Assembly (NCBI RefSeq): GCF_003018235.1
Contig: NZ_CP027437.1
From: Escherichia coli
GTDB taxonomy: Bacteria; Pseudomonadota; Gammaproteobacteria; Enterobacterales; Enterobacteriaceae
Length of the DNA stretch: 64,000 nt
Direction: 5' to 3' (one strand)
Numbering within the stretch: position 1 is the first letter of the stretch; each line of letters opens with the position of its first letter. The notes under the pieces are model-generated. The model was not told the origin of the DNA. It searched no databases and saw only the letters and a program-made list of their open reading frames with translations. Shown here piece after piece: positions 1 through 15,763 of the stretch. The position numbers were made by a program, and so were the translations under genes.

Positions 1-1128
1 TTGGACCTGGCTTAAGATCTGGCTAAGTGGTTGTGATGATGTATCGTAGATTTTCAGCTCTGCGGATGGATTCGCGGGTGCGCTTACCGCTGCGGTGGTT
101 GCCGCCGGGGCGCTTACAGGCACCGGCTGGGCCGCAGGTTGTTCACCGGTCAGATCGCTAACCGAGGCTTGTGCCGGGCTGGCAACGCCATCCACGGTTT
201 GCGGCTGAGGTTGTTCTGCTACGTCTGCGGCAGGTGCGGCAGCTACCTGAGCCGCCACTGGCTGAGTGCCGATATTTTTCGCCGCTTCAAAGCCTTGCTG
301 AATAGTGCGACCAAATACCGCTGCCTGGCCATTCAGTGGCAAAAGCAGGGCGATTTTGTTGGTCGATGCGGGTTTAAACGCTTTTACGTTAACCAACTGC
401 GTTGGCAGCATTTTCGCGCCCGGGTTGTTCGGATAACGTTTCTGCCAGTCGGCGATCCCGGCTTTCATCATGTCGGGATCGTTACGGTTATCAAACCAGA
501 TGCGCTGCAGATCCAACCAGCCTTGCAGAATATTTTCGTCGGCATTGATCACCAGCGTATTCGCCTGTTCCTGAGTCATGGAGGAGAGCGCCTGCCAGGT
601 GGCGTCAATATTCTGCTGCTTTTCTTTCGCACCGAGCAGCGGTTCCTGAGCAATTAACGCGCGCAGTAAATCAATGGAAGGACGCCCCTGGCTGGCATCG
701 ATTTTTGCCTGCCAGTAACGCGCTTGCTGGTTTTGTTCTAAATCTGCAGGTGTGATTTTCGCCAGCAAGTTTTGCGCGCCAGCAAAATCTTTCTGCGCCA
801 GTTTAATCTCTGCCGCCAGCAGTGTTTTCTCGCGACGCTGAGAATCGTTCAGTTCTTGCGGTAGTTGGTTAAACAACTCCACCGCCTGTCCGGTTTTACC
901 TTCTTTCACCAGTGCACGAATGGCGAGTAATTGCCAGTTGATCCTGGTATCATCAGAACTTTGCTGCATCTGTTGCAGGTAAAAGGCAGAATCAGCCTGC
1001 GCCGTGCCCTGCATATAAGCAGTGGACTGATCGGGAGTATGGGTGCCACAACCGGCGAAAATCAGGGCTGCCAGAACAACAGGCAGACAACGCGCGGCTT
1101 TCAAACGAGAAAATGTTGAGGGTACCAT
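1..1128 (-). CDS. lpoA: Penicillin-binding protein activator LpoA (N-terminal 376 codons; 3' end runs off window start)
   Basis: Minus-strand frame open from ATG at 1126-1128 to position 1; translation starts MVPSTFSRLKAARCLPVVLAALIFAGCG (lipoprotein signal, lipobox) and matches recalled LpoA; divergent from rsmI as in E. coli. Confidence 0.85.
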   Translation of the reverse strand, partial: MVPSTFSRLKAARCLPVVLAALIFAGCGTHTPDQSTAYMQGTAQADSAFYLQQMQQSSDDTRINWQLLAIRALVKEGKTGQAVELFNQLPQELNDSQRREKTLLAAEIKLAQKDFAGAQNLLAKITPADLEQNQQARYWQAKIDASQGRPSIDLLRALIAQEPLLGAKEKQQNIDATWQALSSMTQEQANTLVINADENILQGWLDLQRIWFDNRNDPDMMKAGIADWQKRYPNNPGAKMLPTQLVNVKAFKPASTNKIALLLPLNGQAAVFGRTIQQGFEAAKNIGTQPVAAQVAAAPAADVAEQPQPQTVDGVASPAQASVSDLTGEQPAAQPVPVSAPAATTAAVSAPANPSAELKIYDTSSQPLSQILSQVQ

Positions 1129-1191
1129 AATGTATCCAGTGATATTTTTTTACGCAATGCTCAATATTAAATCGGCAATACGGACGACACA

Positions 1192-2055
1192 ATGAAACAA
1201 CACCAATCGGCGGATAATTCTCAGGGCCAGCTTTACATTGTACCGACGCCAATCGGCAATCTGGCGGATATCACCCAGCGTGCGTTGGAGGTATTACAGG
1301 CCGTTGATCTGATTGCCGCCGAGGATACGCGTCACACCGGTTTATTGCTGCAACATTTTGGGATTAATGCTCGGTTGTTTGCGCTGCACGACCATAACGA
1401 ACAACAAAAAGCCGAAACGCTGCTGGCGAAGCTGCAAGAGGGGCAAAACATTGCGCTGGTTTCCGATGCCGGAACGCCGCTAATTAACGATCCTGGCTAC
1501 CATCTGGTGCGTACCTGCCGTGAAGCGGGGATTCGCGTGGTGCCGCTACCCGGGCCGTGTGCTGCTATCACTGCGTTAAGCGCCGCGGGTTTACCATCCG
1601 ATCGTTTTTGTTATGAAGGCTTTTTACCTGCCAAATCAAAAGGCCGCCGTGATGCGCTAAAAGCCATTGAAGCGGAGCCGCGCACGCTGATTTTTTATGA
1701 ATCTACCCACCGTCTGTTAGATAGCCTGGAAGATATCGTTGCGGTATTAGGCGAATCCCGCTACGTGGTTCTGGCGCGTGAGCTAACCAAAACCTGGGAA
1801 ACCATTCACGGCGCGCCCGTTGGCGAGCTGCTGGCGTGGGTAAAAGAAGATGAAAACCGTCGCAAAGGCGAAATGGTGCTGATTGTCGAAGGCCATAAAG
1901 CGCAGGAAGATGACCTGCCTGCTGATGCCCTGCGCACGCTGGCGCTGCTACAGGCAGAACTGCCGCTGAAAAAAGCGGCGGCGCTGGCCGCAGAAATTCA
2001 CGGCGTGAAAAAAAATGCGCTGTATAAGTATGCGCTGGAGCAGCAGGGAGAGTGA
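1192..2055 (+). CDS. rsmI: 16S rRNA 2'-O-ribose C1402 methyltransferase RsmI
   Basis: 287-aa [31 protein letters not shown]..., tetrapyrrole-methylase-like fold typical of RsmI/YraL. Confidence 0.9.
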
Positions 2056-2158
2056 TATCTCTCCGTGGCCCCGTTTGAAGAACCCATGGGCCGCCTGCTA
2101 AACAATCAGTCTTTTTAGTGAATACCGCCGTAAATCCTCGCTCCGTGCGGACTGACCA

Positions 2159-3115
2159 TCAGGGAGCTAGTTGCGTGGTATAGTTGGCAGCGACCCAACG
2201 ATAACCCTTGCTGTTGCTTTTAACATGCCCCAGGCCAGGGAATGAGATATGGGCAGCTGCCACCCAGTAACCACCCTGAGCCGCATGTTTTAATACTCGC
2301 TCACGGGTTTTTACCGCTTGCTGTTGATCCACATCGAAATGTATCGCCACGTGAGGATCCGGCATCTGCACTGCTTTGGCATGAATAATATCACCCCACA
2401 ACACTAGCGTCTGGCCTTCACTCTCCACTGTGTACATCACGCTTCCAGGTGTATGGCCGGCCGTTGAGGTGGCCGTAATGTCTGCAAATACCGTTGCCGG
2501 TGCGATAAAGGTTTTCAGCTGACCTGCGTTGATCACTGGGCGGATGGTCTGCTCCGATTCGACAAAGGTGTGCTTCTGACTCTCTTCTACTTTCGAGGCA
2601 TTCGCCGGATTAAGCCAGAAATCCGCATCTTTCTGCTCAACGAATACCTGGGCGTTAGGGAAAGCTGGTTTGCCCTGACGGGAGATGCCACCAGAGTGGT
2701 CGGCATGAATATGCGTCAGCAGCACGGCATCAATGGTTTCAGCCGGATAGCCAGCAGCTGCCAGGTTCTCAAGCAGTTGGCCTCCATTGTTGCCAAACAG
2801 ATCGCCCGCACCGGCATCAATCAACACGCGTTGCTGACCATTATCAATAACAAATGCATTGATTGAAGTCTCCGTATGGGGTGTCAGAGAATCCTTTGCC
2901 AGTTGCTGGCGCAGTTTATCGGCAGGAATGTGGGTGAGTAATTTATCTAGCGGAATTGTCACCGTGCCGTCGGAGACGGCGGTAATACGTAGTTTGCCCA
3001 ATATCATGCGGTAATAGCCCGGTGCTTGTGTATCAGGAGGGGGCACAGGTATAGGCGTTGCTAACGCATTTACGGAGAGTACCAGTGAGGTCACCAGAGT
3101 CAGCAAAAGTTTCAT
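2159..3115 (-). CDS. Secreted metallo-beta-lactamase-fold hydrolase (unknown substrate)
   Basis: 318-aa ORF with N-terminal signal peptide (MKLLLTLVTSLVLSVNALA) and HxHxDH motif (THIHADHSGG); not part of the K-12 gene order at this position. Confidence 0.75.
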   Translation of the reverse strand: MKLLLTLVTSLVLSVNALATPIPVPPPDTQAPGYYRMILGKLRITAVSDGTVTIPLDKLLTHIPADKLRQQLAKDSLTPHTETSINAFVIDNGQQRVLIDAGAGDLFGNNGGQLLENLAAAGYPAETIDAVLLTHIHADHSGGISRQGKPAFPNAQVFVEQKDADFWLNPANASKVEESQKHTFVESEQTIRPVINAGQLKTFIAPATVFADITATSTAGHTPGSVMYTVESEGQTLVLWGDIIHAKAVQMPDPHVAIHFDVDQQQAVKTRERVLKHAAQGGYWVAAAHISFPGLGHVKSNSKGYRWVAANYTTQLAP

Positions 3116-3196
3116 TCTATCCTCGATAAGTTCTGTTATTACAGTACGGGCACCAGTATCCTTTTGCGGATAACATCATTCAAATTGATTAATATA

Positions 3197-4132
3197 ATGA
3201 ACTCTATCAGAGAAAATGATTTAAACCGGGTCGACCTCAACCTGCTAATCGTGTTCCTGGTGCTACATCGAGAGGGGGAGCGTTTCACGTGCAGCCAACA
3301 AGTTACACTTGGGGCAGCCAGCAGTCAGTGGCGCGCTGGCACGGCTGAGAGAAATGTTTAACGACCCGTTATTTGTGCGCACGGCAAAGGGGATGGCACC
3401 GACACCACGTGCACAAGATCTGGTTACGGCACTACTGCCGGTGATGGATCAAATGCAGCAGGTGATTTTTCAAAGGCCAGTTTTTACCCCAGAACAGGAT
3501 CAGCATACGTTTCGCCTGGGGATGAGTGACTGGGTCGAACGCTGGCTGATGCCTGGAATGATGGCAGATATAGCCCAAATGGCACCCGGGATTCGCTTAC
3601 AAGTCACGGCATCCGATCCTTTCCAGGATGGCGAAAAAGTGCAACAGGATAAGGTGGACGTAGCAATCTCCGTCGTGGAGCAGGTGCCCGCCGGAGTGGA
3701 ACGAGAAGTGATCACTCAAATGGGTTTTTGTACGATGTGGCATCCGCTCCAGTTATCTATCACTTCACCGTTAACCCTTGATGTATATACTGAAACCGAC
3801 CATCTTTTGGTCTCTTATCGCGGTGCAAGCAGTAGCTCTATCGATCTGATTTTGGCTGACTGCGGGCGTGGGAAGTGCGTTACGTCACGCCAAATTTCTC
3901 ATCGTTACCGTTGATGTTGAGACAGATACCGGCTTTAGCGACCGTACCGCAGGGGCTGGCAGAAGGTTGGGTAGCCGATTATGGGTTGCAATTTGCCGAT
4001 GTCCCACTCGAGGTTCCTGCTTTTACGCTCTCTCTACTCTGGAATAAGCGGCGTAATAATGATGAGGCGCTGCGCTGGTTACTAGAGAAATTACGTGCAC
4101 GAATGCAGGGCTGGGAGATGTTTTCAGAATGA
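3197..4132 (+). pseudogene. LysR-family transcriptional regulator disrupted by two frameshifts
   Basis: Three consecutive ORFs (3164-3361, 3309-3914, 3875-4132) in frames 2/0/2 together encode one LysR protein (HTH ...SVSRAANKLHLGQPAVSGALARLREMF, then substrate-binding domain); +1 shift in G5 run at 3274-3278, -1 shift near 3860-3875. Confidence 0.7.
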
Positions 4133-4189
4133 GTTTGAAAACGTAACAATGTGAACAGAAAATAAGGGCTTTCTAAATTAAATAATTCC

Positions 4190-4329
4190 TGTTGAATATC
4201 ATCGTTAGCGACAACATCATCCACGACTACCAGCAGATTTGCACCGATGGTGGATGTTCAGGTCACGCCAACCTGGCCATGAACCAGAAGGTTATCAATA
4301 CGGGTTAAGAGAATATTGAGTAATGTCAT
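4190..4329 (-). pseudogene. agaB: Remnant of PTS EIIB (mannose family, agaB-like) with premature TGA at codon 24
   Basis: ATG at 4327-4329 with AGGAG RBS; MTLLNILLTRIDNLLVHGQVGVT*TSTIGANLLVVVDDVVANDDIQQ; conserved RID..L(I/V)HGQV EIIB motif; in-frame TGA at 4258-4260; similarity ends around 4190, before the convergent LysR pseudogene. Confidence 0.6.
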
Positions 4330-4383
4330 AGTCTTATCTCCTGTTATCCTTGTCGCCTTTCATTTTTCGTTCTTTTGGCGGCA

Positions 4384-4413
4384 ATAAAAAAGGCAGATAA
4401 TTAATTATCTGCC
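4384..4413 (-). terminator. Rho-independent terminator downstream of the C-S lyase gene
   Basis: Perfect palindrome GGCAGATAATTAATTATCTGCC (4392-4413) followed on the minus strand by a U-run (A-run 4384-4391 on plus). Confidence 0.5.
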
Positions 4414-4420
4414 CTGTGGT

Positions 4421-5593
4421 TTATGCGATTTTTTGCATCCTTTCTAATGCTTGTTCAAGCCAGTATCTTTGGGTGCCGAAGTTTAAACGTAAGTAGTTTT
4501 CACCGTTTTGCACATAATGGCTGCCATCTTCAATAATGACTCCAGCGTTGCGGGCAAAATGATTGACCCATTCGGTCGCGGAGCGTCCACTTTCACTGAC
4601 ATCAATCCATGCCAGATATGACGATTCTGGTGTCATCATTTTCCATTCAGGAAAATGCGTCTTGAGGGCATCATTAAGCCAGTGGGAGTTATTGCGTAAA
4701 TAGATATTTAATGCATCCAGCCACGGTCTTGCATGCTGATAAGCCAGTGTAATTCCCCAAACGCCAAAAATATTCGGCGAAGTGATTGAGTTCATTTCCA
4801 GTCTCTGGCGAAAACGCTGCCTCAATCCTTTATTCGGAATGACTGAGTAAGATGTTTTCAGTCCCCCTAGGTTAAAGGCTTTATTTGGTGATGTTAGCAG
4901 GACCAGATTATCGTGATCGGCACATCCGGTAGCCAGGCAACTGACAAACTCGCCTTCCAGCAGGTGCTCGGCATGGACTTCATCCACGACCAGAATGACG
5001 CCGTAACGTTTACATAAGTCCGAAACCTGGCGAATCTCATCTGCCGTCCAGATTCGCCCGGAAGGGTTATGTGGAGAGCAGAAAAACCATAGTTTAGGTT
5101 TATGAAGTTTAAGCTGATCTTCAACCAGCGAAAAATCCAGTTGATAACGGTTATCCGCAATGCTTAACGGATTTGCCAGCACTTTAACCCCCTGGCGCTC
5201 TGTTGCCATGGCAAAAGGGTCATAGACTGGCGTATTCATCATGACGCTATCGCCCGGCTGGCAGAACGCCTGAACCATATAGTGCAGCGTTGAGACAGTA
5301 CCATAGGTTAGGGTGATCCAATTCTGCTCGATACTTACGTGGTGACGATCGCGCTGGAAGCCTATCACGGCCTCATAAAACTCATTAAAGGCGTATGTGT
5401 AGCCGAAAGTTCCGTGCTCAACAATCCGTTGAAAACCGTCAATTACCGCTGGTGGCGAAGTAAAATCCATATCAGCGATCCAAAGAGGGATAAAATCTTC
5501 TGCAACCGCACCGAAGCGTGAGCAGACAAACTGATGATCCCATTTGCGGCACTTGTCGCTTTTACGCTCGATAATTCTATCGAAATCGAACAT
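4421..5593 (-). CDS. PLP-dependent aminotransferase class I/II, MalY/PatB-type C-S lyase (cystathionine beta-lyase-like)
   Basis: 390-aa ORF, AGGAG RBS; N-terminus MFDFDRIIERKSDKCRKWD and overall pattern resemble E. coli MalY; 12 nt downstream of the PTS gene (operon). Confidence 0.85.
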   Translation of the reverse strand: MFDFDRIIERKSDKCRKWDHQFVCSRFGAVAEDFIPLWIADMDFTSPPAVIDGFQRIVEHGTFGYTYAFNEFYEAVIGFQRDRHHVSIEQNWITLTYGTVSTLHYMVQAFCQPGDSVMMNTPVYDPFAMATERQGVKVLANPLSIADNRYQLDFSLVEDQLKLHKPKLWFFCSPHNPSGRIWTADEIRQVSDLCKRYGVILVVDEVHAEHLLEGEFVSCLATGCADHDNLVLLTSPNKAFNLGGLKTSYSVIPNKGLRQRFRQRLEMNSITSPNIFGVWGITLAYQHARPWLDALNIYLRNNSHWLNDALKTHFPEWKMMTPESSYLAWIDVSESGRSATEWVNHFARNAGVIIEDGSHYVQNGENYLRLNFGTQRYWLEQALERMQKIA

Positions 5594-5605
5594 TTTTAAC
5601 TCCTG

Positions 5606-7177
5606 TTAAATTAAAGCTTCAAGGCCCGTTTTCACACTTTGAACTTGCGGGCCAATAATTACCTGCACACTGTGAGCATCCAGTACAACCACCGACAGGG
5701 CACCTGCATTCTTTAACGTGGCTTGATCCACTTTCGACATATCTTTCACCACCAAACGTAAACGAGTAATACAGTTATCCAGTGAATCAATATTTTCTTT
5801 TCCGCCAAGCGCACTCAAAATCACAGCATGATCATATTTAGATTTGCCTCGTGCTTTTGAATTTGCTGCAACAGCCTGTGCTGCATCCTCAGATGAGTCT
5901 TCACGGCCTGGGGTTTTAATATCATGCTTAAGGATGTACCAACGGAAAACAAAGAAATAAATAGCAAACCAAACAATACCCACCGGAAGTATTAAATACC
6001 ATTTAGTAGAAGTACCCTGCATGATACCAAATATTAATAAATCCAAAATCCCGCCATCAGTATTACCGATAGTCACGCCCAGGATTGCCATAACCATTAA
6101 GGCCAGACCGGACATGATAATATGGAATATATACAACGCAGGAGCAATAAAGAGGAATAAAAACTCAATTGGTTCAGAAATGCCAGTAACAACAGATACT
6201 AATACGCCTGAAAGCAGTAAGCCTTTAATTACAGGACGATTTTCTGGTTTGGCTGTACGATAAATTGCGTAAGCCACAGCAGGCAAACCAAACATAAAGG
6301 TTGGCATAAAGCCTTGGGATAAAAACGCAGTAACATGTGGGCTAAAGGGAAGACCGGCTTTTAATTCTGCATAGAAAATATTGAGTGCTCCGGCAACTTC
6401 ATGACCGTCGACAATTTCTGTACCGCCCGCAGGTGTGAAGCGAACCATTGCAAGCAAGATATGATGTAGCCCGAAAGGCTTAAGCAAAAGCACACCAACG
6501 CCATAAAGGAACGGGCCGAATACGCTGGTACTTTGAATAATGTGGCCAATACCAGCAATACCCATTGCAACATAGGTCCAGAGCAAAGGAATGGCCTGGC
6601 CTACTAATGATAATGTTAGCGAAGTGATGATGGGTACGAAGCGGATACCGCTAAAGAAGGCAAAGGCATCATGTAATACAGTATCCTGAAAACGTTCGTG
6701 GAGAAAATAAGTTATTACCCCGGCGATGATGCCACCTAAAACGCCCATCTCTAAGGTTTGAATACCTAATACTACAGATTGACCAACCTGCTTCATCGTG
6801 GCAGCATCGGCAAGTTGATGGGTAACAGTGAGATAATAATTAATACTCATGTTCATTAGCATATAGCCAACAAAACCTGAATATGCGCCTACTGCTTTAT
6901 TTCTCTTTGCCATTCCTAATGGAATTGCAATAGCAAACATAACAGGTAGATAAGTAAATGCAAAGCCACCTACCATTGCAATAAAGCCAAATGTAAGTTG
7001 GGTAAGCTCACCACCTAAAAAGGGGAAGTTATTAATTGTTGAGGGGCTGGTTACTGAACTACCTATACCTAACAGAAGTCCCATAAAAGCGAGTAATGAT
7101 ACTGGGAACATAAATGTTTTCCCTAAACTTTGGAAAAACTCCCAGACCCGTGACTTTATAGACTTTTCCTGTGTCAT
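5606..7177 (-). CDS. PTS glucose/maltose-family EIICB component (MalX-like)
   Basis: 523-aa ORF; membrane EIIC domain followed by EIIB domain with the conserved phospho-cysteine motif NCITRLR; AAGGAG RBS; resembles MalX/PtsG. Confidence 0.85.
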   Translation of the reverse strand: MTQEKSIKSRVWEFFQSLGKTFMFPVSLLAFMGLLLGIGSSVTSPSTINNFPFLGGELTQLTFGFIAMVGGFAFTYLPVMFAIAIPLGMAKRNKAVGAYSGFVGYMLMNMSINYYLTVTHQLADAATMKQVGQSVVLGIQTLEMGVLGGIIAGVITYFLHERFQDTVLHDAFAFFSGIRFVPIITSLTLSLVGQAIPLLWTYVAMGIAGIGHIIQSTSVFGPFLYGVGVLLLKPFGLHHILLAMVRFTPAGGTEIVDGHEVAGALNIFYAELKAGLPFSPHVTAFLSQGFMPTFMFGLPAVAYAIYRTAKPENRPVIKGLLLSGVLVSVVTGISEPIEFLFLFIAPALYIFHIIMSGLALMVMAILGVTIGNTDGGILDLLIFGIMQGTSTKWYLILPVGIVWFAIYFFVFRWYILKHDIKTPGREDSSEDAAQAVAANSKARGKSKYDHAVILSALGGKENIDSLDNCITRLRLVVKDMSKVDQATLKNAGALSVVVLDAHSVQVIIGPQVQSVKTGLEALI

Positions 7178-7314
7178 TTAATAGACTCCTTGATTTTTAT
7201 AAGCATAGTTTCAAGGTCATGAAAAAGTAATCATGACCTTTTATATTTGTGAGGTAAGTTGTTTTTTATTGTCTGAATACAGCTGCTAAGAAACTGTTAT
7301 TCACATATTTTTAA

Positions 7315-8184
<870 letters not shown>

Positions 8185-9339
8185 TTATGCCTGCCACGGA
8201 TGAATGATTACGCCTTGCACCACGCGGTTAACGGTGCCACTGGCTGATGGGGTATCCGGCGTATTGCCCATGTGCAGCGACTGCATCAGTGCAAACGTCT
8301 GGGCGTACATCAGGAAGCAAAATGCCTGCTCAACGTCGATAAAGTGACGGGACGGCGGCAGGATGATATGTGGACCGGCGGTAATAACGTCGTTGCTTTC
8401 CGCGGCGATAGCGATTACGCGCATCGCCTGGTTGTCACGACGAAGTTCAGCCAGCAGATCAAGATCATACTGGCGGGTGTAAGGGTGGCTGGAGACAAAT
8501 ACCACCACCAGCGTTTCGTTATCGACCAGCGATTTTGGTCCATGACGGAATCCGGTCGGGGAATCATAAAAGGCCGCCAGTTTACCCGCCGTCAGTTCCA
8601 GTACTTTCAGCGCCGACTCGCGTGCTGCGCCCTGTAAGCCACCGCTGCCGAGATAAACGATCCGTTTCCACGGTGCGTAACCAAACACACCTTCGCTGAA
8701 ATCGCTCAGTGAGGTTAGGATCGCCTGGCAACGATCCGCCACGTCGCGGAAGCTCTGGCTGTTGATCGTCTCAGGTGCGAAAACCGCGAGGCAGCTGGCC
8801 ATCATGGTGGTAATGCTGCTGGTCATCGCAAAGCCGCGATCGTGCGTTTCTGCGGGCATCAGCAGGGCAAACGCGTTGTCGCTGTTGATCGCGTTTTGGT
8901 AAAGAGCGCCCGCTTCGTTGCAGGTGATCGGCAGGTGATAGCACTCGGGTACAAATTGATTTGCCAGTTCCACGGCGGCGACGCTTTCCGGGCTGTTGCC
9001 GGATCGACCGAAGGAGATCAACAGCAGCGGATGAGCTGGATTCAGGTAGTCCATCGGATTGGTGACCAGATCGGTGGTCGGTACGGCGCTGAAGTTTTTA
9101 CCGGTATGGCTGGCGAGCCACGGCGCGATGATGTCACCGATAAATGCCGAGGTTCCGGCTCCGGTCAGGATTACCCGCAGATTCTCTTTGCGCAGTAACG
9201 GTTCAAGGAAGTTATTGAGCGCGGAACGTAGCGCGTCGATGTTGGTGAGTGAACGGATCCATGCGCGAGGCTGATGGCGGATCTCTTCTTCAGTCCATGT
9301 ACCGGTTGCGGCAGCAGCAGGGGTGTAATTTTCTGGCAT
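8185..9339 (-). CDS. agaS: Galactosamine-6-phosphate deaminase/isomerase AgaS (SIS domain)
   Basis: 384-aa ORF, tandem SIS domains, matches recalled AgaS length and N-terminus. Confidence 0.9.
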   Translation of the reverse strand: MPENYTPAAAATGTWTEEEIRHQPRAWIRSLTNIDALRSALNNFLEPLLRKENLRVILTGAGTSAFIGDIIAPWLASHTGKNFSAVPTTDLVTNPMDYLNPAHPLLLISFGRSGNSPESVAAVELANQFVPECYHLPITCNEAGALYQNAINSDNAFALLMPAETHDRGFAMTSSITTMMASCLAVFAPETINSQSFRDVADRCQAILTSLSDFSEGVFGYAPWKRIVYLGSGGLQGAARESALKVLELTAGKLAAFYDSPTGFRHGPKSLVDNETLVVVFVSSHPYTRQYDLDLLAELRRDNQAMRVIAIAAESNDVITAGPHIILPPSRHFIDVEQAFCFLMYAQTFALMQSLHMGNTPDTPSASGTVNRVVQGVIIHPWQA

Positions 9340-9520
9340 AACTCAATCCTTAGTCTGATGAACTTGACGTCGGGCGTTGTCGCTTTCGCTTACCTTTCGT
9401 TTCATTTCACTTGGTGATGTCTTTCGTTGATTAAAATCTATAGAAAAGAAACTGAAAGTTCAATGGAGAAAAAAGAAATAAAACGAAATTTGTGATCATT
9501 GAAAGAAAAGACAAGGGAAG
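9340..9520 (-). promoter_or_regulatory. agaS promoter region with AgaR-type operator repeats
   Basis: Arrays of TTTC/GAAA repeats (cgctttcgcttacctttcgtttcatttcac; gaaactgaaagtt; aaacgaaatttg) typical of DeoR-type AgaR operators upstream of agaS. Confidence 0.45.
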
Positions 9521-9560
9521 ATTAAAGGATGGCGTGATGACGTTGCTATGTTCACCGATT

Positions 9561-9614
9561 GCCGGATGCGGCGTACCGTAGGTCAAAGAAGACGCGTCAG
9601 CGTCGCATCCGATA
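9561..9614. repeat. REP (repetitive extragenic palindromic) element pair
   Basis: GCCGGATGCGGCG ... CGTCGCATCCGATA inverted units between agaA stop and agaS promoter. Confidence 0.5.
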
Positions 9615-9688
9615 CCCTGCACAGAGCACAACGAAAGAAAAAGAAAGGCCTTACGGGGGAAGTGAAGGCCCAATAAAGGAGCAAACCA

Positions 9689-10822
9689 TCAAAACGAAGC
9701 TAATTGACCCTGAATCCAGATTTGTTGCACATGCAGCCCGCTATCCAGCGCAACGATGCTGGCGCGTTTGCCCGGTTTAAGCGATCCCAGAACATCATCA
9801 ACACCCAGCATTTGCGCCGGATGCAGCGACGCCATATGGATGGCTTCGGCAGGCGTTACACCCGCCAACTCAACCATGTTGCGCACTGCCGCATCGACAG
9901 ACAGCGTACTGCCCGCCAGCCCACCGGACGCGGTACGGACAACGCCACCGTGCATCTGCACTTCTTCACCACATAACGTATAGCGACCATCCGGCATCCC
10001 GGCTGCCTGCATCGCGTCGGTGATGAGCACGATTCTCTCTTTTGCACAGCAACAACACAGCGACATCGCCGCCGGATGCACATGATGACCATCGGCTATC
10101 AGTTCCAGCCAGGCGCGCTTGTCCGTTAATCCCGCACCAACCATTCCCGGTTCGCGGTGATGTAAACCTGTCATCCCGTTATAGCAATGCACCAGGCCGT
10201 CGGCACCAGCGTCAAACGCGGCACGGGTTTGTTGCCAGGTCGCCGCGCTATGCCCCAGCATCACCCGTACGTTTTGCTGTTTAAGATGGCGGATGGCCTG
10301 CAATGCCCCTTCTTTTTCCGGTGCCAGCGCTACCACGCGCAAGGTGTGCTGAGAAACGGCAATCAACTGATCCAGCTCGGCAATTTCCAGCTCGCGAAAC
10401 AGCTCCGGCGGATGCGCGCCTTTATTCTGCGGCGTGAAGTATGGTCTTTCGAGATAACTCCCCAGCACTTGCGCACCAGGTCCGCCGCGTTGGCAACGTT
10501 GAGCAATACGTTTCAGCGCCGCATGAATGGTATTAAGCGGCGCGGTTACGGTGGTCGGTAACCAACTGCCGACACCTTCGCGTGCCTTGTGCATTGCCAG
10601 CTTGTCGAGCACATCCGGCGCGTCATCCATTACATCAACGCCCGCACCACCGTGTACATGGGTGTCGATGTAAGCGGGGCAGAGCAGTTCCGCATCGCGT
10701 TCAGTCACGCCCACTGGAATCGGTTCGATTGCTGCGATTACACCGTCAGCAATACGCAACTGATGGTCATCGAGCCATCCCTCTTCAGTCAGCAGCCTTC
10801 TGGCGCGCAGAACGTGTGTCAT
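9689..10822 (-). CDS. agaA: N-acetylgalactosamine-6-phosphate deacetylase AgaA (full length)
   Basis: Start chosen at MTHVLRARRLL (377 aa; track ORF extends 7 codons upstream); metal-dependent amidohydrolase; start overlaps agaF stop by ATGA. Confidence 0.85.
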   Translation of the reverse strand: MTHVLRARRLLTEEGWLDDHQLRIADGVIAAIEPIPVGVTERDAELLCPAYIDTHVHGGAGVDVMDDAPDVLDKLAMHKAREGVGSWLPTTVTAPLNTIHAALKRIAQRCQRGGPGAQVLGSYLERPYFTPQNKGAHPPELFRELEIAELDQLIAVSQHTLRVVALAPEKEGALQAIRHLKQQNVRVMLGHSAATWQQTRAAFDAGADGLVHCYNGMTGLHHREPGMVGAGLTDKRAWLELIADGHHVHPAAMSLCCCCAKERIVLITDAMQAAGMPDGRYTLCGEEVQMHGGVVRTASGGLAGSTLSVDAAVRNMVELAGVTPAEAIHMASLHPAQMLGVDDVLGSLKPGKRASIVALDSGLHVQQIWIQGQLASF

Positions 10823-11253
10823 ATTCCTTCCTCGACCGGACATTCTTCATGGCAGCGGCCTAACTCGTCCACCAAACTGGTCAGCCCACGGTGTCCACAC
10901 TCCAGCGCCTGCACACGGAACTCTTCACCGCTTAACCCTTCGCGCTCCAGCACCATCTCCAGTAGCAGTTGCAAATTGGTGCCGGTGATCACTTCACAGC
11001 CCGGTTTTTGCATCGCCAGCGTTGAAGCTACGCGAAACGGCGTGCCGCCCAGCAAATCCGTCAGAAAAACAATGCCGTCTTCACAATCGAGTTGGGCGAT
11101 GGCCTCTTCAAGCTGCGATGTAAGCAGCGCGGTGCTTGAGGTTTCGGGAAAATCGATGGCAATAAACTGCGATTGCTCGCCGAGGATTTGCTTCATTGCT
11201 TTTTCTATGCCACTGGCAAACCCGCCATGCCCTGTCAAAATAATACTTAACAT
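10819..11253 (-). CDS. agaF: PTS mannose-family EIIA component (GalNAc-specific)
   Basis: 144-aa ORF MLSIILTGHGGFASG..., EIIA-Man fold; position between agaE and agaA. Confidence 0.85.
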   Translation of the reverse strand: MLSIILTGHGGFASGIEKAMKQILGEQSQFIAIDFPETSSTALLTSQLEEAIAQLDCEDGIVFLTDLLGGTPFRVASTLAMQKPGCEVITGTNLQLLLEMVLEREGLSGEEFRVQALECGHRGLTSLVDELGRCHEECPVEEGI

Positions 11254-11270
11254 CTAATACCTCATTGTAT

Positions 11271-12155
11271 TTAAAGGAAATGGCAGAATTTACCGACGAT
11301 GCCGAGAACCACGGTAACTGCAATCAGGCGCAGCGGACTCCAGCCGCGGCGTACCAGCCAGAACATGGTCAGGGTGTAGACCAGCGGTAAGAAGGCTGGC
11401 ATCAGTTTGTCGATAACATCAGCCTGTAACTTAACCACTGCGTCGCCAGCGGTGATTTCCAGCGTGGTGCTTAAACGAACATAGGTTGCCACCAGCGCGC
11501 CGATTACCGTCATCCCAACGATTGACGCAGCATGGCCGACTTTTTGGGTATTCGCTTTAATGAGTGGAATCGCCGCCACGCCCATGCGGTAAGCATAATG
11601 CGCCAGACCAAAACGCAGCCCCAGGTGTACCACGTTGAACAGCACAATAAAGACGACTGCGCCAAGAATAGAGCCTTGTAGCGCGAGGCTTGCGCCTATC
11701 CCGCCACAAATCGGCAGTAGCGTCAGCCAGAACATCGCATCGCCAATCCCGCCGAGCGGCGCACCGACGGCAATTTTGGTGCTCTGAATACTGTTAACGT
11801 CCTGCTTAGAACGCTCCATCGCAAGGATAATGCCGATAACAAACGTCACCAGAAACGGATGGGTATTGAAGAAACCCATATGCCCTTTCATGGCGCGCGC
11901 CAGGTCGCGTTTATTAGTGTGGATCTTTTTCAGAGCAGGCAGCAGACCGTACAACCAGCCGGAAGCCTGCATACGCTCGTAGTTAAAAGACGCTTGTAAC
12001 AGCATGGAACGCCAGGCGACGCGGTTGATATCTTTTTTCGTCAGCTCTGCGCCAATGCTCTGATCTTCATACACGTTTTCATTGACGCCTGTCAGCAGTG
12101 TTTCTTCGTTTTCACTGACGTTCGGCAGGGTGGTTTGATTAGATGCCATCTTCAA
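11271..12155 (-). CDS. agaE: PTS mannose-family EIID component (GalNAc-specific)
   Basis: 294-aa membrane ORF; start uncertain (12155 or 12149), overlaps agaW stop. Confidence 0.8.
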   Translation of the reverse strand: MKMASNQTTLPNVSENEETLLTGVNENVYEDQSIGAELTKKDINRVAWRSMLLQASFNYERMQASGWLYGLLPALKKIHTNKRDLARAMKGHMGFFNTHPFLVTFVIGIILAMERSKQDVNSIQSTKIAVGAPLGGIGDAMFWLTLLPICGGIGASLALQGSILGAVVFIVLFNVVHLGLRFGLAHYAYRMGVAAIPLIKANTQKVGHAASIVGMTVIGALVATYVRLSTTLEITAGDAVVKLQADVIDKLMPAFLPLVYTLTMFWLVRRGWSPLRLIAVTVVLGIVGKFCHFL

Positions 12156-12918
12156 ATTCCTCTTTCTGTGCCGCAGGTTGAGTCGGTTCAGGAGATTTAC
12201 GCAGCAGATCGATCAGCGCCATCGCCAGCGCGGCGGCAGCAATAGCCAGCACCGGTAACTTGAGCCAGGCTGCGGCAACAAAGCCCAGGATGAAGTAGGG
12301 GATGTAGACGTTTTTCATCATGATTTTCAGCAGCACGGCAAAACCGATTGCTGGCATGATGCCGCCCGCGACGCCGAGGCCGTCGATTAATCGTTGCGGC
12401 AGGACATCAATGATGGTTTTGGCATGTTCTGCGCCGAAGTAGATAGGCAGGAAAGCGCAGAGAAAATAGAAAGTGCCGAGTGCCAGCAGTGCCAGATAGT
12501 TCACGCGTTCAATGCCGCGAGTATCGGCGTTCTCCGCCATCCGGTCGCAGCGGGACATTACGCCAGACATCACCGAGAACAGGAAGGTAATCCCCATCTG
12601 TACTGCGACAGCGAAAGGTACGGCGACACCGACCGCGACATCGGGTTTCACGCCAGTAGTAATGGCAAACGCCGTGCCGACGATAGTACCGATAATCACG
12701 TTAGGCGGTTGTGCGCCTGCCAGCGGGGCCAGCCCCATCCACACCAGTTCCAGCGTACCGCCGGTTAAAATACCGGTATGCAGATCGCCAAGTACCAGCC
12801 CGACTAACGGGCCGAGGACCACCGGGCGGTGCATATGGGTTAAGCCGTTAAACATATCCAGGCCAGCGATAAAGGCGATAATGCCCAACGCGAATGCCTG
12901 CAACAGACTGATTTCCAT
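12139..12918 (-). CDS. agaW: PTS mannose-family EIIC component (GalNAc-specific), intact
   Basis: 259-aa polytopic membrane ORF. Confidence 0.85.
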   Translation of the reverse strand: MEISLLQAFALGIIAFIAGLDMFNGLTHMHRPVVLGPLVGLVLGDLHTGILTGGTLELVWMGLAPLAGAQPPNVIIGTIVGTAFAITTGVKPDVAVGVAVPFAVAVQMGITFLFSVMSGVMSRCDRMAENADTRGIERVNYLALLALGTFYFLCAFLPIYFGAEHAKTIIDVLPQRLIDGLGVAGGIMPAIGFAVLLKIMMKNVYIPYFILGFVAAAWLKLPVLAIAAAALAMALIDLLRKSPEPTQPAAQKEEFEDGI

Positions 12919-12928
12919 GATGAATCCC

Positions 12929-13402
12929 TCAAAGTAATTTAAAGAGGTCCACAGCAGGCTCTGTCGGGACGCCCTGAACGAAGCATTCCACCCCAGCGGC
13001 TTTCAGGTCGTTAAATGCTGCGATATCGCCCGCATCCACAGAAACCGTTTTGGCGATTTGTTGCTTGCCATTGGCGTAGTGCATATTGCCAACGTTAATG
13101 CGATTCACCGGAACGCCACCTTTCACCAGCGTCAGGAAATCGGCAGGTGTTTTACAAACCAGCAGGATTTTCTGTCGATCGGCGGCGCGATGAATGTTGT
13201 CGATGACTTTTTGCAGCGTCCAGAAACGTACGGCGATCCCTTCTGCCAGTACCATTTCCATCAGGTTTTGTTGTACCGGATCTTCGGCAACCTCATCGTT
13301 GGCTACCAGCACCAGATTTGCCCCCGCAAATCCGACCCACTGAACGCCGACCTGACCGTGAATCAAGCGTTCATCAATCCGGCTTAAAATAATATTTGGC
13401 AT
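12929..13402 (-). CDS. agaV: PTS mannose-family EIIB component (GalNAc-specific)
   Basis: Start chosen at MPNIILSRIDERLIHGQVGV (157 aa; track ORF has a 12-codon upstream extension that would overlap kbaZ). Confidence 0.85.
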   Translation of the reverse strand: MPNIILSRIDERLIHGQVGVQWVGFAGANLVLVANDEVAEDPVQQNLMEMVLAEGIAVRFWTLQKVIDNIHRAADRQKILLVCKTPADFLTLVKGGVPVNRINVGNMHYANGKQQIAKTVSVDAGDIAAFNDLKAAGVECFVQGVPTEPAVDLFKLL

Positions 13403-13424
13403 AGCGTGTTCCTCTTTGTTTTGC

Positions 13425-14705
13425 TTATTGGCCTTCACAGGCTGTGTGGTACTGCGCCAGGATGTCCTGAATATGGTTGATAATGAGTTCCCGTGGCGTC
13501 GGTTGCAGCTCGCCGGAGCGAACTTTCACGTATTGCAGCGGCAGATACTGGCTGATGAGCGGCAGCGGAATCGGTGAATCCGCCAGATTACGAACCAGAT
13601 GGGCGAAAGCGTCATCAATCTGGCTGTCCGGCCAGTAATAGCGCACGCGATCCGAGTAGCTATAACCACGCGCCAGACGACGCGCGTTGCCGTCACCGTG
13701 GTAGTGGCTTTGCCAGTATTCCGGGCGGTCGAGCATCACGTTTTCCAGCACCTGACGCAGACCGGAACAGGCTTTCGCTGGTACCAGTTCTTCTTCAATC
13801 GCCGCCAGAGAAAAAAGGGCTTCACGCAGGGCGAAGGTCAGCGCCGGGCCAACTTTCAGAATGGCAAAGTGGTCAATCACCAGCTGGCGCAACGATTGCG
13901 GCGTTTGGTAATCGGTAGAGTGCGCTTCGAAAATCAGCGTTTCGTAGTTTTCGACCATCTGGCTTAATGCGGTCGCTTTAGCTGGCTGATAATCAATAAC
14001 GTTGGTGTGATCGAATTCGACGCCGGGTTGAACCACCAGGGCAATAATGCGTGGCCAGATGGCATTCAGGCCCTGCTTTTCAAAGGCGTGGCGATGGGCT
14101 TCCAGTGTGGCGCGGGCGGCATCCGGCGTGGTGACCGCCAGCTCGCTTAAGGTTTCATGCGCGCCGCCAGGTACCGGTACTTCGGTACCAATGACATACT
14201 CCAGATCGGCCGCGCCAAAATGTTCACGGCAGGTTTCTTCCGCCACTTTCGCCAGACGAGCGGCGCGTTCGGCCACGATGTCATCAGTTAAGGGAATCGG
14301 ATCGTCCTGACAGGACATGCTGCAATCAAGGTGAATTTTTTTGAATCCTGCCGCCACGTAGCTTTTAATCAAATCATCGGCATTGGCCATTGCCTGAGCG
14401 GCAGGCAGGTTTTGCCAGCGGTTTGGCCCCAGATGGTCGCCACCCAGAATCAACGCATCCTGTGGGAAATTCAACGAGTCGGCGAGCTGACAAACAAAGC
14501 CGCGAAAATCGGCGGGCGTCATTCCGGTATAACCGCCGAACTGGTCCACCTGATTGGAGGTTGCTTCAATCAGTAACGGTGTTTGGTTTGCACTGGCGTA
14601 GCGGATTGCAGCTTCCAGCACCAGCGGATGTGCGGAACAAACGGCATAAATCCCATTTGTTTTGCCCTCTTTGTGCTGTCTCACCATTTCTGTCAGATGT
14701 TTCAC
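13425..14705 (-). CDS. kbaZ: Tagatose-bisphosphate aldolase non-catalytic subunit KbaZ
   Basis: 426-aa ORF, GTG start; [33 protein letters not shown]... Confidence 0.9.
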
Positions 14706-14953
14706 TTTCCTCTCCAGTTCAGATTACTGCGATATTAATCTTTCGTTTTGTTTCAGTTGATACTGCGCCATGGTGAGATAAAAATAAAACGAAAGATAAT
14801 AGTTTTCTGATCTGATTCACAAAAGAAACATAATGAAAGCCACTGAAACGAGAGTAGCTTGCGCCAATGGGTAAGGTGGGCTTGCATTTGCTTAATAGAA
14901 AGGCGTTAATAGGCAAAACGAAATGAAACGAAAGTTTTACGAAAGGACTTACT
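14706..14953. promoter_or_regulatory. Divergent kbaZ/agaR promoter region with AgaR operator repeats
   Basis: Multiple copies of TTTCGTTTTGTTTC / AAACGAAATGAAACGAAAG type repeats in the 248-bp divergent intergenic region. Confidence 0.5.
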
Positions 14954-15763
14954 ATGAGTAATACCGACGCTTCAGGCGAGAAGCGAGTGACAGGCACCAG
15001 TGAGCGACGAGAGCAGATCATTCAACGCCTGCGCCAGCAAGGAAGTGTGCAGGTTAACGATCTGTCGGCATTGTATGGCGTATCTACTGTGACGATCCGC
15101 AACGATCTGGCGTTTCTGGAAAAGCAGGGGATCGCTGTGCGTGCCTATGGCGGCGCGTTGATCTGCGATAGCACGACGCCGTCAGTCGAGCCATCAGTGG
15201 AAGATAAAAGCGCGCTGAACACCGCAATGAAACGCAGCGTTGCGAAAGCTGCCGTTGAGTTGATTCAGCCAGGTCATCGGGTAATCCTCGATTCCGGGAC
15301 CACCACTTTTGAGATTGCTCGTCTGATGCGCAAGCACACTGACGTAATTGCGATGACCAACGGTATGAACGTGGCTAATGCGTTGCTGGAAGCGGAAGGC
15401 GTTGAGCTGCTGATGACCGGCGGGCATTTGCGCCGTCAGTCGCAATCTTTTTACGGCGATCAGGCTGAACAATCGCTGCAAAATTACCACTTCGATATGC
15501 TGTTTCTTGGCGTAGATGCGATCGATCTGGAGCGCGGCGTCAGCACGCATAATGAAGATGAAGCCCGTTTAAACCGTCGGATGTGCGAAGTTGCGGAACG
15601 GATCATCGTGGTCACCGATTCCAGTAAGTTCAATCGTTCCAGTTTACATAAGATCATTGATACTCAACGTATCGACATGATCATTGTTGATGAAGGCATT
15701 CCTGCGGATAGTCTGGAAGGACTGCGAAAGGCTGGGGTTGAAGTGATTCTGGTCGGGGAGTGA
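14954..15763 (+). CDS. agaR: DeoR-family repressor of the aga regulon AgaR
   Basis: 269-aa ORF with N-terminal HTH and C-terminal DeoR sugar-binding domain. Confidence 0.9.

Follow-up and report, generated by a model that had tools for sequence, protein, structure and literature searches.

Genes for an EIICB transporter of the phosphotransferase system (PTS) that are paired with a gene for a PatB/MalY-type lyase, and operons that combine a PTS with aminopeptidases, have been known in Escherichia coli for decades, and we know of no physiological substrate for them. To our knowledge, the same is true for the MalI-regulated malX-malY operon of strain K-12, in which the gene of the transporter MalX precedes that of the pyridoxal 5'-phosphate (PLP)-dependent enzyme MalY, a protein that moonlights as an antagonist of the regulator MalT. 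Here we analyse a related gene pair in a 64,000-nt stretch of the E. coli contig NZ_CP027437.1 (GCF_003018235.1), termed the window in the following, to whose positions all coordinates refer. The pair is located within the aga operon for the utilisation of N-acetylgalactosamine (GalNAc), downstream of kbaY, and encodes a Glc-family EIICB and a PLP-dependent lyase. It resembles malX-malY in that the same two families are present in the same order and in that the transporter lacks an EIIA domain and passes the malX model of NCBIfam. Unlike malX-malY, it is situated inside the aga operon without an adjacent MalI-type regulator, its products are only 54% and 31% identical to MalX and MalY, and its lyase belongs to a separate orthogroup with invariant polar residues of its own. 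Given this identity and the different locus, the EIICB is not an orthologue of K-12 MalX.

In E. coli C and K-12, agaBCD-agaI takes the place behind kbaY within the agaS transcription unit and likewise provides a second PTS entry to the pathway (PMC3668189). Hereby, mannose-family IIB, IIC and IID proteins for free galactosamine are combined with the NagB-like AgaI, whereas in the window a Glc-family EIICB is combined with a PLP lyase; the two modules stand in tandem in cryptic Escherichia. A pathway employing the same lyase family has been described for Staphylococcus hominis, where an M20 dipeptidase trims the peptide part before PatB carries out the β-elimination (PMC7385124, PMC11742315). 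Similarly, PepV-like dipeptidases adjoin the lyase orthogroup in Firmicutes. In contrast to the orthogroup described here, which has polar positions in the pocket and a PTS partner, S. hominis PatB (ShPatB) has a hydrophobic pocket and relies on non-PTS uptake. What is new in the present case is not the genes, which are already annotated, but a PTS catabolic operon with a PatB-type PLP lyase as its putative second step.

Very probably, the pair is a conserved distal module of a variant aga operon and not an insertion. The order kbaY-EIICB-lyase recurs in Salmonella enterica subsp. indica, Kluyvera cryocrescens, Kluyvera genomosp. 1, an Enterobacter metagenome-assembled genome (MAG) and isolate RIT691. 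It also occurs in Morganella morganii and M. psychrotolerans, with a different downstream flank, and in Aeromonas veronii and A. lacus, with agaS placed behind kbaZ and an overlap between the EIICB and lyase genes. The linkage of the pair to aga thus extends over seven genera, two of which have a different flank or aga gene order. In the listed taxa the pair ends a full aga operon, and in Enterobacteriaceae the cluster abuts rsmI, as it does in the window.

The closest view of the history of the locus is provided by the cryptic Escherichia sp. MOD1-EC7003, which shows the order kbaY-EIICB-lyase-agaB-agaC-agaD-agaI-yraHIJK-rsmI with intact agaBCD, and which aligns to window positions 4190-15596 in a single blastn alignment of ~92% identity. 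Since this strain keeps the agaBCDI module intact behind the lyase gene, the agaB stub that follows the lyase gene in the window is the remnant of such a module; in Salmonella indica, a 28-nt relic of the agaB start is found in the same place. Synonymous divergence (dS) from the cryptic Escherichia amounts to 0.185 for EIICB and 0.43 for the lyase, compared to 0.176 for kbaY and 0.185 for agaS, and dS from Salmonella indica to 2.06 (EIICB), 1.69 (lyase) and 1.95 (agaS). For the most part, the synonymous divergence of the pair hence matches that of the neighbouring aga genes. The ratio of nonsynonymous to synonymous divergence (dN/dS) ranges from 0.02 to 0.13 (0.02-0.09 for EIICB, 0.06-0.13 for the lyase) and internal stops are absent, also among the E. 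coli carriers, which shows the pair to be intact and, as judged from these ratios, under purifying selection. In line with the sequence-only reading, which had noted the absence of transposases, integrases and flanking direct repeats, no integrase or transposase ORF (open reading frame) was found in the first 16 kb (1-16 kb), and only chance-level short repeats were detected, none of which, direct or inverted, bounds 4331-7314. Its further claim, that the pair had been inserted by unclear means, is not supported, in view of the shared slot after kbaY in several genera, the position upstream of an intact agaBCDI in cryptic Escherichia and the mostly matching dS values.

Within E. coli the arrangement is rare. 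The pair is present in 30 of 5,426 complete genomes, mainly of serotype O145:H28, at 97.2-97.7% identity, and missing from 99.4%. The carriers have the layout rsmI-MBL-LysR-agaB'-lyase-EIICB-kbaY (MBL, metallo-β-lactamase-fold hydrolase), and all 30 share one agaB truncation including the junction beyond the stub. Compared to each other, they differ by 1-8% per 500 nt over the whole rsmI-agaR interval, or by 2-4% when the region is taken as a whole, and the haplotype is therefore old within E. coli. Taken together, the conserved position, the co-divergence with aga, the age of the haplotype and the lack of mobility signatures argue for a module that is long-standing in the Escherichia lineage. 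With this segment, the aga-rsmI interval has an alternative arrangement of long standing, which persists in ~0.5% of the complete E. coli genomes, among them notably Shiga toxin-producing E. coli (STEC) of O145:H28, and in several other enteric genera. The idea that it is the common ancestral arrangement of Escherichia, with K-12 as the exception, is thus largely borne out in its first part by the cryptic lineage and the other genera, with only one other Escherichia lineage that has the pair among the protein matches; K-12, in contrast, is no exception, as 99.4% of the genomes lack the pair.

The E. coli origin of the window itself is evident from its tdc region, which shares 99.3% identity with the best-matching E. 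coli genomes, and the public assembly GCA_011972655.1 matches window positions 1-15593 at 99.97%. A relocation of malX and malY orthologues by assembly error, which had also been considered, is ruled out by the identities of 54% and 31% and by the 30 independent complete genomes. Apart from this, the rsmI-agaR interval is 96-98% identical to K-12, while tdc reaches ~99% against the best-matching E. coli genomes, and the interval is unusually mosaic among carriers, suggesting old haplotypes or frequent recombination. Moreover, the pair-less E. coli strains 18KM2445 and MEW contain a 316-nt relic in the agaI-yraH spacer (positions 6001-6316 of the 18KM2445 locus). The relic is 80% identical to window 4273-4593, a segment that reaches from the final 173 nt of the lyase gene across the terminator hairpin into the start of agaB; the kbaY-agaB junction is normal in the two strains.

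Both minus-strand ORFs that the sequence-only reading had assigned to an EIICB and a PatB/MalY-type lyase are present and pass the respective family models. The EIICB scores 732.6 bits on NCBIfam TIGR02004 (malX-type EIIBC; curated cutoff 632.2) and consists of EIIC and EIIB domains; PF02378 and PF00367 are recorded for the EIICB genes at four loci that encode an identical lyase. The NCITRLR phosphorylation motif was correctly recognised: the phospho-cysteine is Cys469 in DNCITRLRL, which aligns with the identical motif of MalX. Identity to the lyase-linked EIICB of Enterococcus is 65%. In RefSeq the two genes are already annotated, namely as malX (EIICB) and as MalY/PatB family protein (lyase).

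For the lyase, the score on TIGR04350 (PatB family C-S lyase; cutoff 340) is 364.4 bits, with residues 4-388 covered, and among solved structures it matches B. subtilis PatB (6qp3, E = 8e-80), MalY (1d2f, E = 1e-64) and cystalysin (1c7n, E = 1e-59). The PLP-binding Lys238 in SPNK238AFN is aligned to SGSK233SFN of MalY, and Arg369 in YLRLNFG, which binds the α-carboxylate, to FVRLNAG; both residues are invariant in 14 orthologues. The role of the carboxylate-binding arginine has been described for Arg376 of ShPatB (PMC7385124). The orthogroup of the lyase is sharply bounded, with members at least 46% identical to the lyase of the window and the next relatives, generic PatB proteins, reaching at most 37%. 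At 26 positions its members carry an invariant residue that differs in 63 outgroup sequences. These residues include R16, T99, T102, H104, D125, N237, S269, T271 and S272, at positions that hold hydrophobic or small residues in generic PatB and MalY. MalY shares only 2 of the 26 residues, and the lyase is thus not a MalY orthologue. In ShPatB the leaving-group pocket is formed by Tyr25, Val46, Tyr72*, Val108, Pro134, Phe274* and Thr276* (PMC7385124). By applying a constant residue offset, anchored on Val46/I39, Tyr72/Y65 and Arg376/R369, several of the orthogroup-specific residues are placed, approximately, at or beside these pocket positions. Such a placement hints at a polar pocket containing a basic residue, which would be suited to accommodate a sugar phosphate.

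We also inspected gene neighbourhoods; all statements refer to those orthogroup loci that could be read. In each of them, the lyase gene has PTS transporter genes no more than a few kb away. In the aga operons, in Hafnia, where the pair stands alone, and in Enterococcus dispar/canintestini, Olsenella uli and an Aerococcaceae MAG, a Glc-family EIICB with 62-93% identity to that of the window is encoded directly upstream of the lyase. In Enterococcus dispar/canintestini, Olsenella uli and the Aerococcaceae MAG a LicT antiterminator is found as well, and EIIA-Glc was confirmed in Enterococcus and Olsenella. In Pelosinus, Clostridium, Caloramator, Lucifera and Caproiciproducens, genes for Fru-family EIIA, EIIB and EIIC lie upstream of the lyase gene, with an M24 peptidase gene in between; these loci also encode a PepV-like M20 dipeptidase and a PRD regulator, sometimes an M42 aminopeptidase and once manA. 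In Collinsella, Lac-family IIB and IIC genes are found within ~2 kb on the opposite strand, together with genes for M24 and M42 peptidases, whereas in Companilactobacillus futsaii a Man-family Aga-like PTS is located downstream, after RidA and GntR genes, along with an AgaS-family protein and two NagA. A D-2-hydroxyacid dehydrogenase gene is positioned beside the lyase gene in Enterococcus and Collinsella. The EIICB and lyase genes stay together across three phyla and are 12-16 nt apart or overlap. The PepV-like M20 dipeptidases beside the lyase additionally match the Cys-Gly-3M3SH dipeptidase model.

The components of the Fru-type loci show 67-78% identity to K-12 FryB, 51-62% to FryC, 42-45% to YpdF and 48% to YpdE. 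In Firmicutes the lyase orthogroup is thus appended to homologues of the K-12 fryBC-ypdEF cluster. The K-12 fry operon itself, however, has no lyase, and the module of the window has no peptidase and a Glc-family transporter. As a lead on the function of the fry operon, we note that FryB-FryC-YpdF(-YpdE) homologues are accompanied by a PRD regulator, a PepV-like dipeptidase and the lyase in Firmicutes and Negativicutes. A 687-aa protein is encoded between the Aga-like PTS and the agaS/nagA genes of Companilactobacillus futsaii (5403-7466 of that locus); it matched no NCBIfam model, and no Pfam family significantly. For the large ORFs that adjoin the lyase gene in Collinsella and Olsenella, probably wrong-strand artefacts of high GC content, no family matches were obtained.

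With regard to regulation, the AgaR operator consensus of Ray and Larson 2004 has 5 matches in the 64-kb window, while 0.12 would be expected by chance. All of them are located at the agaS promoter or in the kbaZ/agaR region (Table 1), those at the agaS promoter with 0 and 1 mismatch. The 137-nt spacer between kbaY and EIICB shows no AgaR match, and no promoter-like site was found in it on the coding strand. The strong downstream terminator and the upstream palindrome that the sequence-only reading had proposed are both supported by folding: the terminator has a minimum free energy (MFE) of -13.9 kcal/mol (z = -4.4), the palindrome an MFE of -14.9 kcal/mol (z = -6.3). The terminator hairpin follows the lyase gene in cryptic Escherichia, too. 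Since pair and kbaY lie on the same strand, the spacer appears to be promoter-less and a terminator follows the lyase gene, the simplest reading is a single agaS-kbaY-EIICB-lyase transcript that would end at this terminator. The two genes of the pair have their own ribosome-binding-site-like motifs, as had been noted before, with AGGAG at 5600-5604 for the lyase and AAGGAG at 7186-7191 for EIICB, both on the minus strand. For the stand-alone Hafnia pair, no upstream AgaR operator was found at up to 3 mismatches, only loose CTTTC-like boxes, which are uninformative.

The hairpin in the kbaY-EIICB spacer is present at the same position in six Enterobacteriaceae, including the window, although its arms have entirely different sequences in the Enterobacter MAG and in RIT691. 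In Morganella a terminator-like hairpin follows kbaY instead. The conservation of the stem at one position points to a structural role, which it may exert in RNA or in single-stranded DNA. The differing arms have the appearance of compensatory change.

Concerning the question whether the lyase is a catabolic enzyme or a regulator, the evidence leans towards the former. More specifically, we propose that the pair is a distal aga module for the import and subsequent β-elimination of a sugar-amino-acid conjugate, a proposal to which we give roughly even chances. The joint presence of a PTS, the lyase, frequent peptidases and sugar genes that vary with the lineage (aga, agaS/nagA, manA) points to a substrate made up of a sugar and an amino acid or short peptide. 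A β-elimination is supported by RidA and D-2-hydroxyacid dehydrogenase, since both fit a reaction in which first aminoacrylate and then a 2-oxo acid is formed. The two-step mechanism as such might hold or fail with about the same probability. Transcription would start at the AgaR-controlled agaS promoter. The EIICB would take its phosphate from Crr (EIIA-Glc), and would import and 6-phosphorylate a glycoside with an amino acid as aglycone; where peptidases occur, the peptide part would be trimmed before the lyase step. The lyase would then form an external aldimine with the amino acid and perform the β-elimination. Products would be aminoacrylate (a RidA substrate), subsequently pyruvate or 2-oxobutyrate, NH3 and the free amino-sugar-6-phosphate, and the released sugar phosphate would be catabolised by AgaA, AgaS and KbaYZ.

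An analogous logic is realised by MurP-MurQ, where N-acetylmuramic acid is taken up by the PTS and its lactyl ether is removed to yield N-acetylglucosamine-6-phosphate. Here, too, a Glc-family EIIBC is combined with a cytoplasmic eliminating enzyme that liberates an amino-sugar-6-phosphate. Unlike MurQ, a SIS-domain etherase which acts on the sugar ring, the lyase is a PLP enzyme that would act on the amino-acid moiety, and the two are not related in sequence.

Our best inference for the substrate is an amino-sugar conjugate of Ser, Thr or Cys. Because the natural product entering the aga pathway is GalNAc-6-phosphate or galactosamine-6-phosphate, GalNAc-α-O-Ser/Thr, the core structure of mucins, would be the simplest candidate, which we nevertheless put forward with reserve, as the balance of probability is against it. 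In the gut, OgpA and other O-glycopeptidases cleave on the N-terminal side of glycosylated Ser/Thr (PMC7518263), which would leave the free α-amino group that a PLP enzyme needs. In a tentative generalisation, which is possible though rather doubtful, the whole orthogroup would be cytoplasmic glyco-amino-acid β-lyases, with several PTS families importing O-glycosylated Ser/Thr or glycopeptides. Hereby, YpdF-, YpdE- and PepV-like peptidases would trim the imported compound and the sugar-6-phosphate would be freed without glycoside hydrolysis; applied to the aga-linked version, this would make GalNAc-α-O-Ser/Thr, the Tn structure of mucins, the substrate. The value of the locus lies in the fact that one orphan-type pair is embedded in a pathway with known intermediates, which allows a concrete hypothesis to be formulated. 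If true, it would establish a new non-hydrolytic route for mucin-derived glyco-amino acids and the catabolism of O-glycan cores, would matter for how STEC and other enterics colonise the gut, and would provide a testable function for the orphan PTS operons malXY, fryABC-ypdEF and frvABXR.

Several points weigh against this picture. We know of no precedent for the β-elimination of an O-glycoside by a PatB-type PLP enzyme, and the anomeric oxygen leaves less readily than a thiolate. The identity of the sugar follows from gene neighbourhood only, and Hafnia, Enterococcus and Olsenella have no adjacent aga genes. The pocket residues were assigned by residue offset, not by structural superposition. 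In full-text searches of the literature, no paper was found on the module, on a PLP glycosyl-serine lyase or on the function of fry/ypdEF. With respect to origin, GC content at third codon positions (GC3) of the pair in E. coli is 35% and 48%, compared to 59-65% for the aga genes, and a much older foreign origin is therefore possible. Likewise, the K-12-type kbaY tail and 166-nt spacer are unrelated to the spacers of the carriers, which makes the pair-less state a replacement rather than the product of a clean deletion, and either state may be ancestral within E. coli itself.

Among the alternatives, one has to consider that the pair is unrelated to aga and would combine a redundant glucose/maltose (or galactosamine) transporter with a spare cystathionine β-lyase or cysteine desulfhydrase. 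PatB and MalY enzymes do cleave cystathionine in vitro (PMC7385124), and both proteins of the window pass generic family models that are named for such functions. Moreover, the Hafnia pair is located away from any aga genes. We nevertheless regard this explanation as unlikely, as it leaves the tight coupling of both genes across three phyla unexplained, as well as the fact that the orthogroup is never found without nearby PTS genes in readable loci, the recurrence of peptidase, RidA and amino-sugar genes in the vicinity, and the polar, invariant pocket residues specific to the orthogroup.

Alternatively, the transporter could import a free sugar while the lyase would mainly serve, like MalY, as an antagonist of a transcription factor, for instance MalT or an aga regulator. 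The moonlighting of K-12 MalY is a precedent and the order of EIICB and lyase is that of malXY, but we consider a regulatory role very unlikely: the lyase is just 31% identical to MalY and differs from it at 24 of the 26 orthogroup-specific positions, its catalytic residues are invariant, RidA adjoins it in one lineage, and its linkage to a PTS is kept across phyla with unrelated regulators (LicT, PRD-type, GntR, AgaR).

A further explanation retains the two steps but replaces the O-glycoside by a thio-linked substrate, either S-glycosyl-cysteine or a glutathione-derived Cys(-Gly) S-conjugate of a sugar-like molecule. S-glycosides are rare in the gut relative to O-GalNAc peptides, and a 1-thio-sugar-6-phosphate has no known route into the aga pathway, which renders such a substrate highly doubtful, even though C-S cleavage is the known chemistry of the family (PMC7385124) and the PepV-like dipeptidases echo the staphylococcal pathway of dipeptidase plus PatB (PMC11742315).

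Finally, a foreign malXY-like operon might have been acquired recently by horizontal transfer and have entered between kbaY and agaB in the lineage of the strain. The low GC content of the pair (42-47% overall, with the deviating GC3), its absence from nearly all complete E. coli genomes and the lack of relationship of the kbaY tail and both spacers to the K-12 spacer might point to such an event, but it is very improbable in view of the same position in six other genera, dS values that mostly equal those of the flanking aga genes at both Escherichia and Salmonella depth, the single alignment with cryptic Escherichia across pair and aga genes, carriers that have diverged over the whole region as an old haplotype, and the absence of mobility genes and bounding repeats.

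The features of the locus are listed in Table 1. Upstream of the pair and on the same strand lies the full GalNAc operon kbaZ-agaVWEF-agaA-agaS-kbaY, with agaR in divergent orientation; downstream follow the agaB stub, a LysR gene, which is frameshifted here, the MBL-fold hydrolase gene and rsmI. EIICB and lyase ORFs are separated by 12 nt.

Table 1. Features of the aga-rsmI region of the window
Feature	Position	Strand	Remarks
agaB' remnant	4183..4330	-	first ~148 nt of galactosamine PTS IIB gene, in-frame stop
Intrinsic terminator	4390..4415	-	11-bp stem and T run; directly after lyase gene
PatB/MalY-family PLP-dependent lyase	4421..5593	-	390 aa
Glc-family PTS EIICB (MalX-type)	5606..7177	-	523 aa
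Stem-loop in kbaY-EIICB spacer	7213..7240	-	10-bp arms, 8-nt loop, no U tract
kbaY	7315..8172	-	KbaY equivalog model, 661 bits
agaS, first gene of distal aga transcription unit	8185..9339	-	
Two AgaR-operator matches at agaS promoter	9391..9492	.	nearest upstream regulatory site to pair
kbaZ-agaV-agaW-agaE-agaF-agaA, complete GalNAc PTS and deacetylase	9689..14705	-	
agaR repressor gene	14954..15763	+	three AgaR-operator matches at 14737-14937

In K-12, kbaY is directly followed by agaB, then by agaCDI, yraHIJK and rsmI, so that the position of the pair between kbaY and an agaB stub had been described correctly. The remnant is 96.3% identical to nt 13-147 of K-12 agaB, and in other strains its equivalent is labelled in RefSeq as an incomplete IIB pseudogene. 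Relative to K-12, ~8.2 kb comprising agaB(3')-agaCDI-yraHIJK are absent, with LysR-MBL in their place. On the other side, the last ~20 nt of kbaY are part of the variant segment, and similarity to K-12 ends at window position 7334.

The replacement of agaB(3')-agaCDI-yraHIJK by LysR and MBL genes is shared by all E. coli carriers, and an MBL hydrolase gene beside rsmI was not seen in the other genera examined. The MBL-fold hydrolase (2159-3115, minus strand) has an apparent signal peptide; it reaches 203 bits on its best-matching model, that of AidB-type N-acyl homoserine lactonases, which is below the cutoff of 360. The LysR gene (3164-4132, plus strand) is broken into three overlapping ORFs with 7 stops in one frame; it is intact in other carriers (312-314 aa) and also uncalled in one near-identical assembly. 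At the opposite end of the region, the yhaV toxin gene beside agaR is annotated as a pseudogene with an internal stop in O145:H28 RM12581 and intact in 2020CK-00188.

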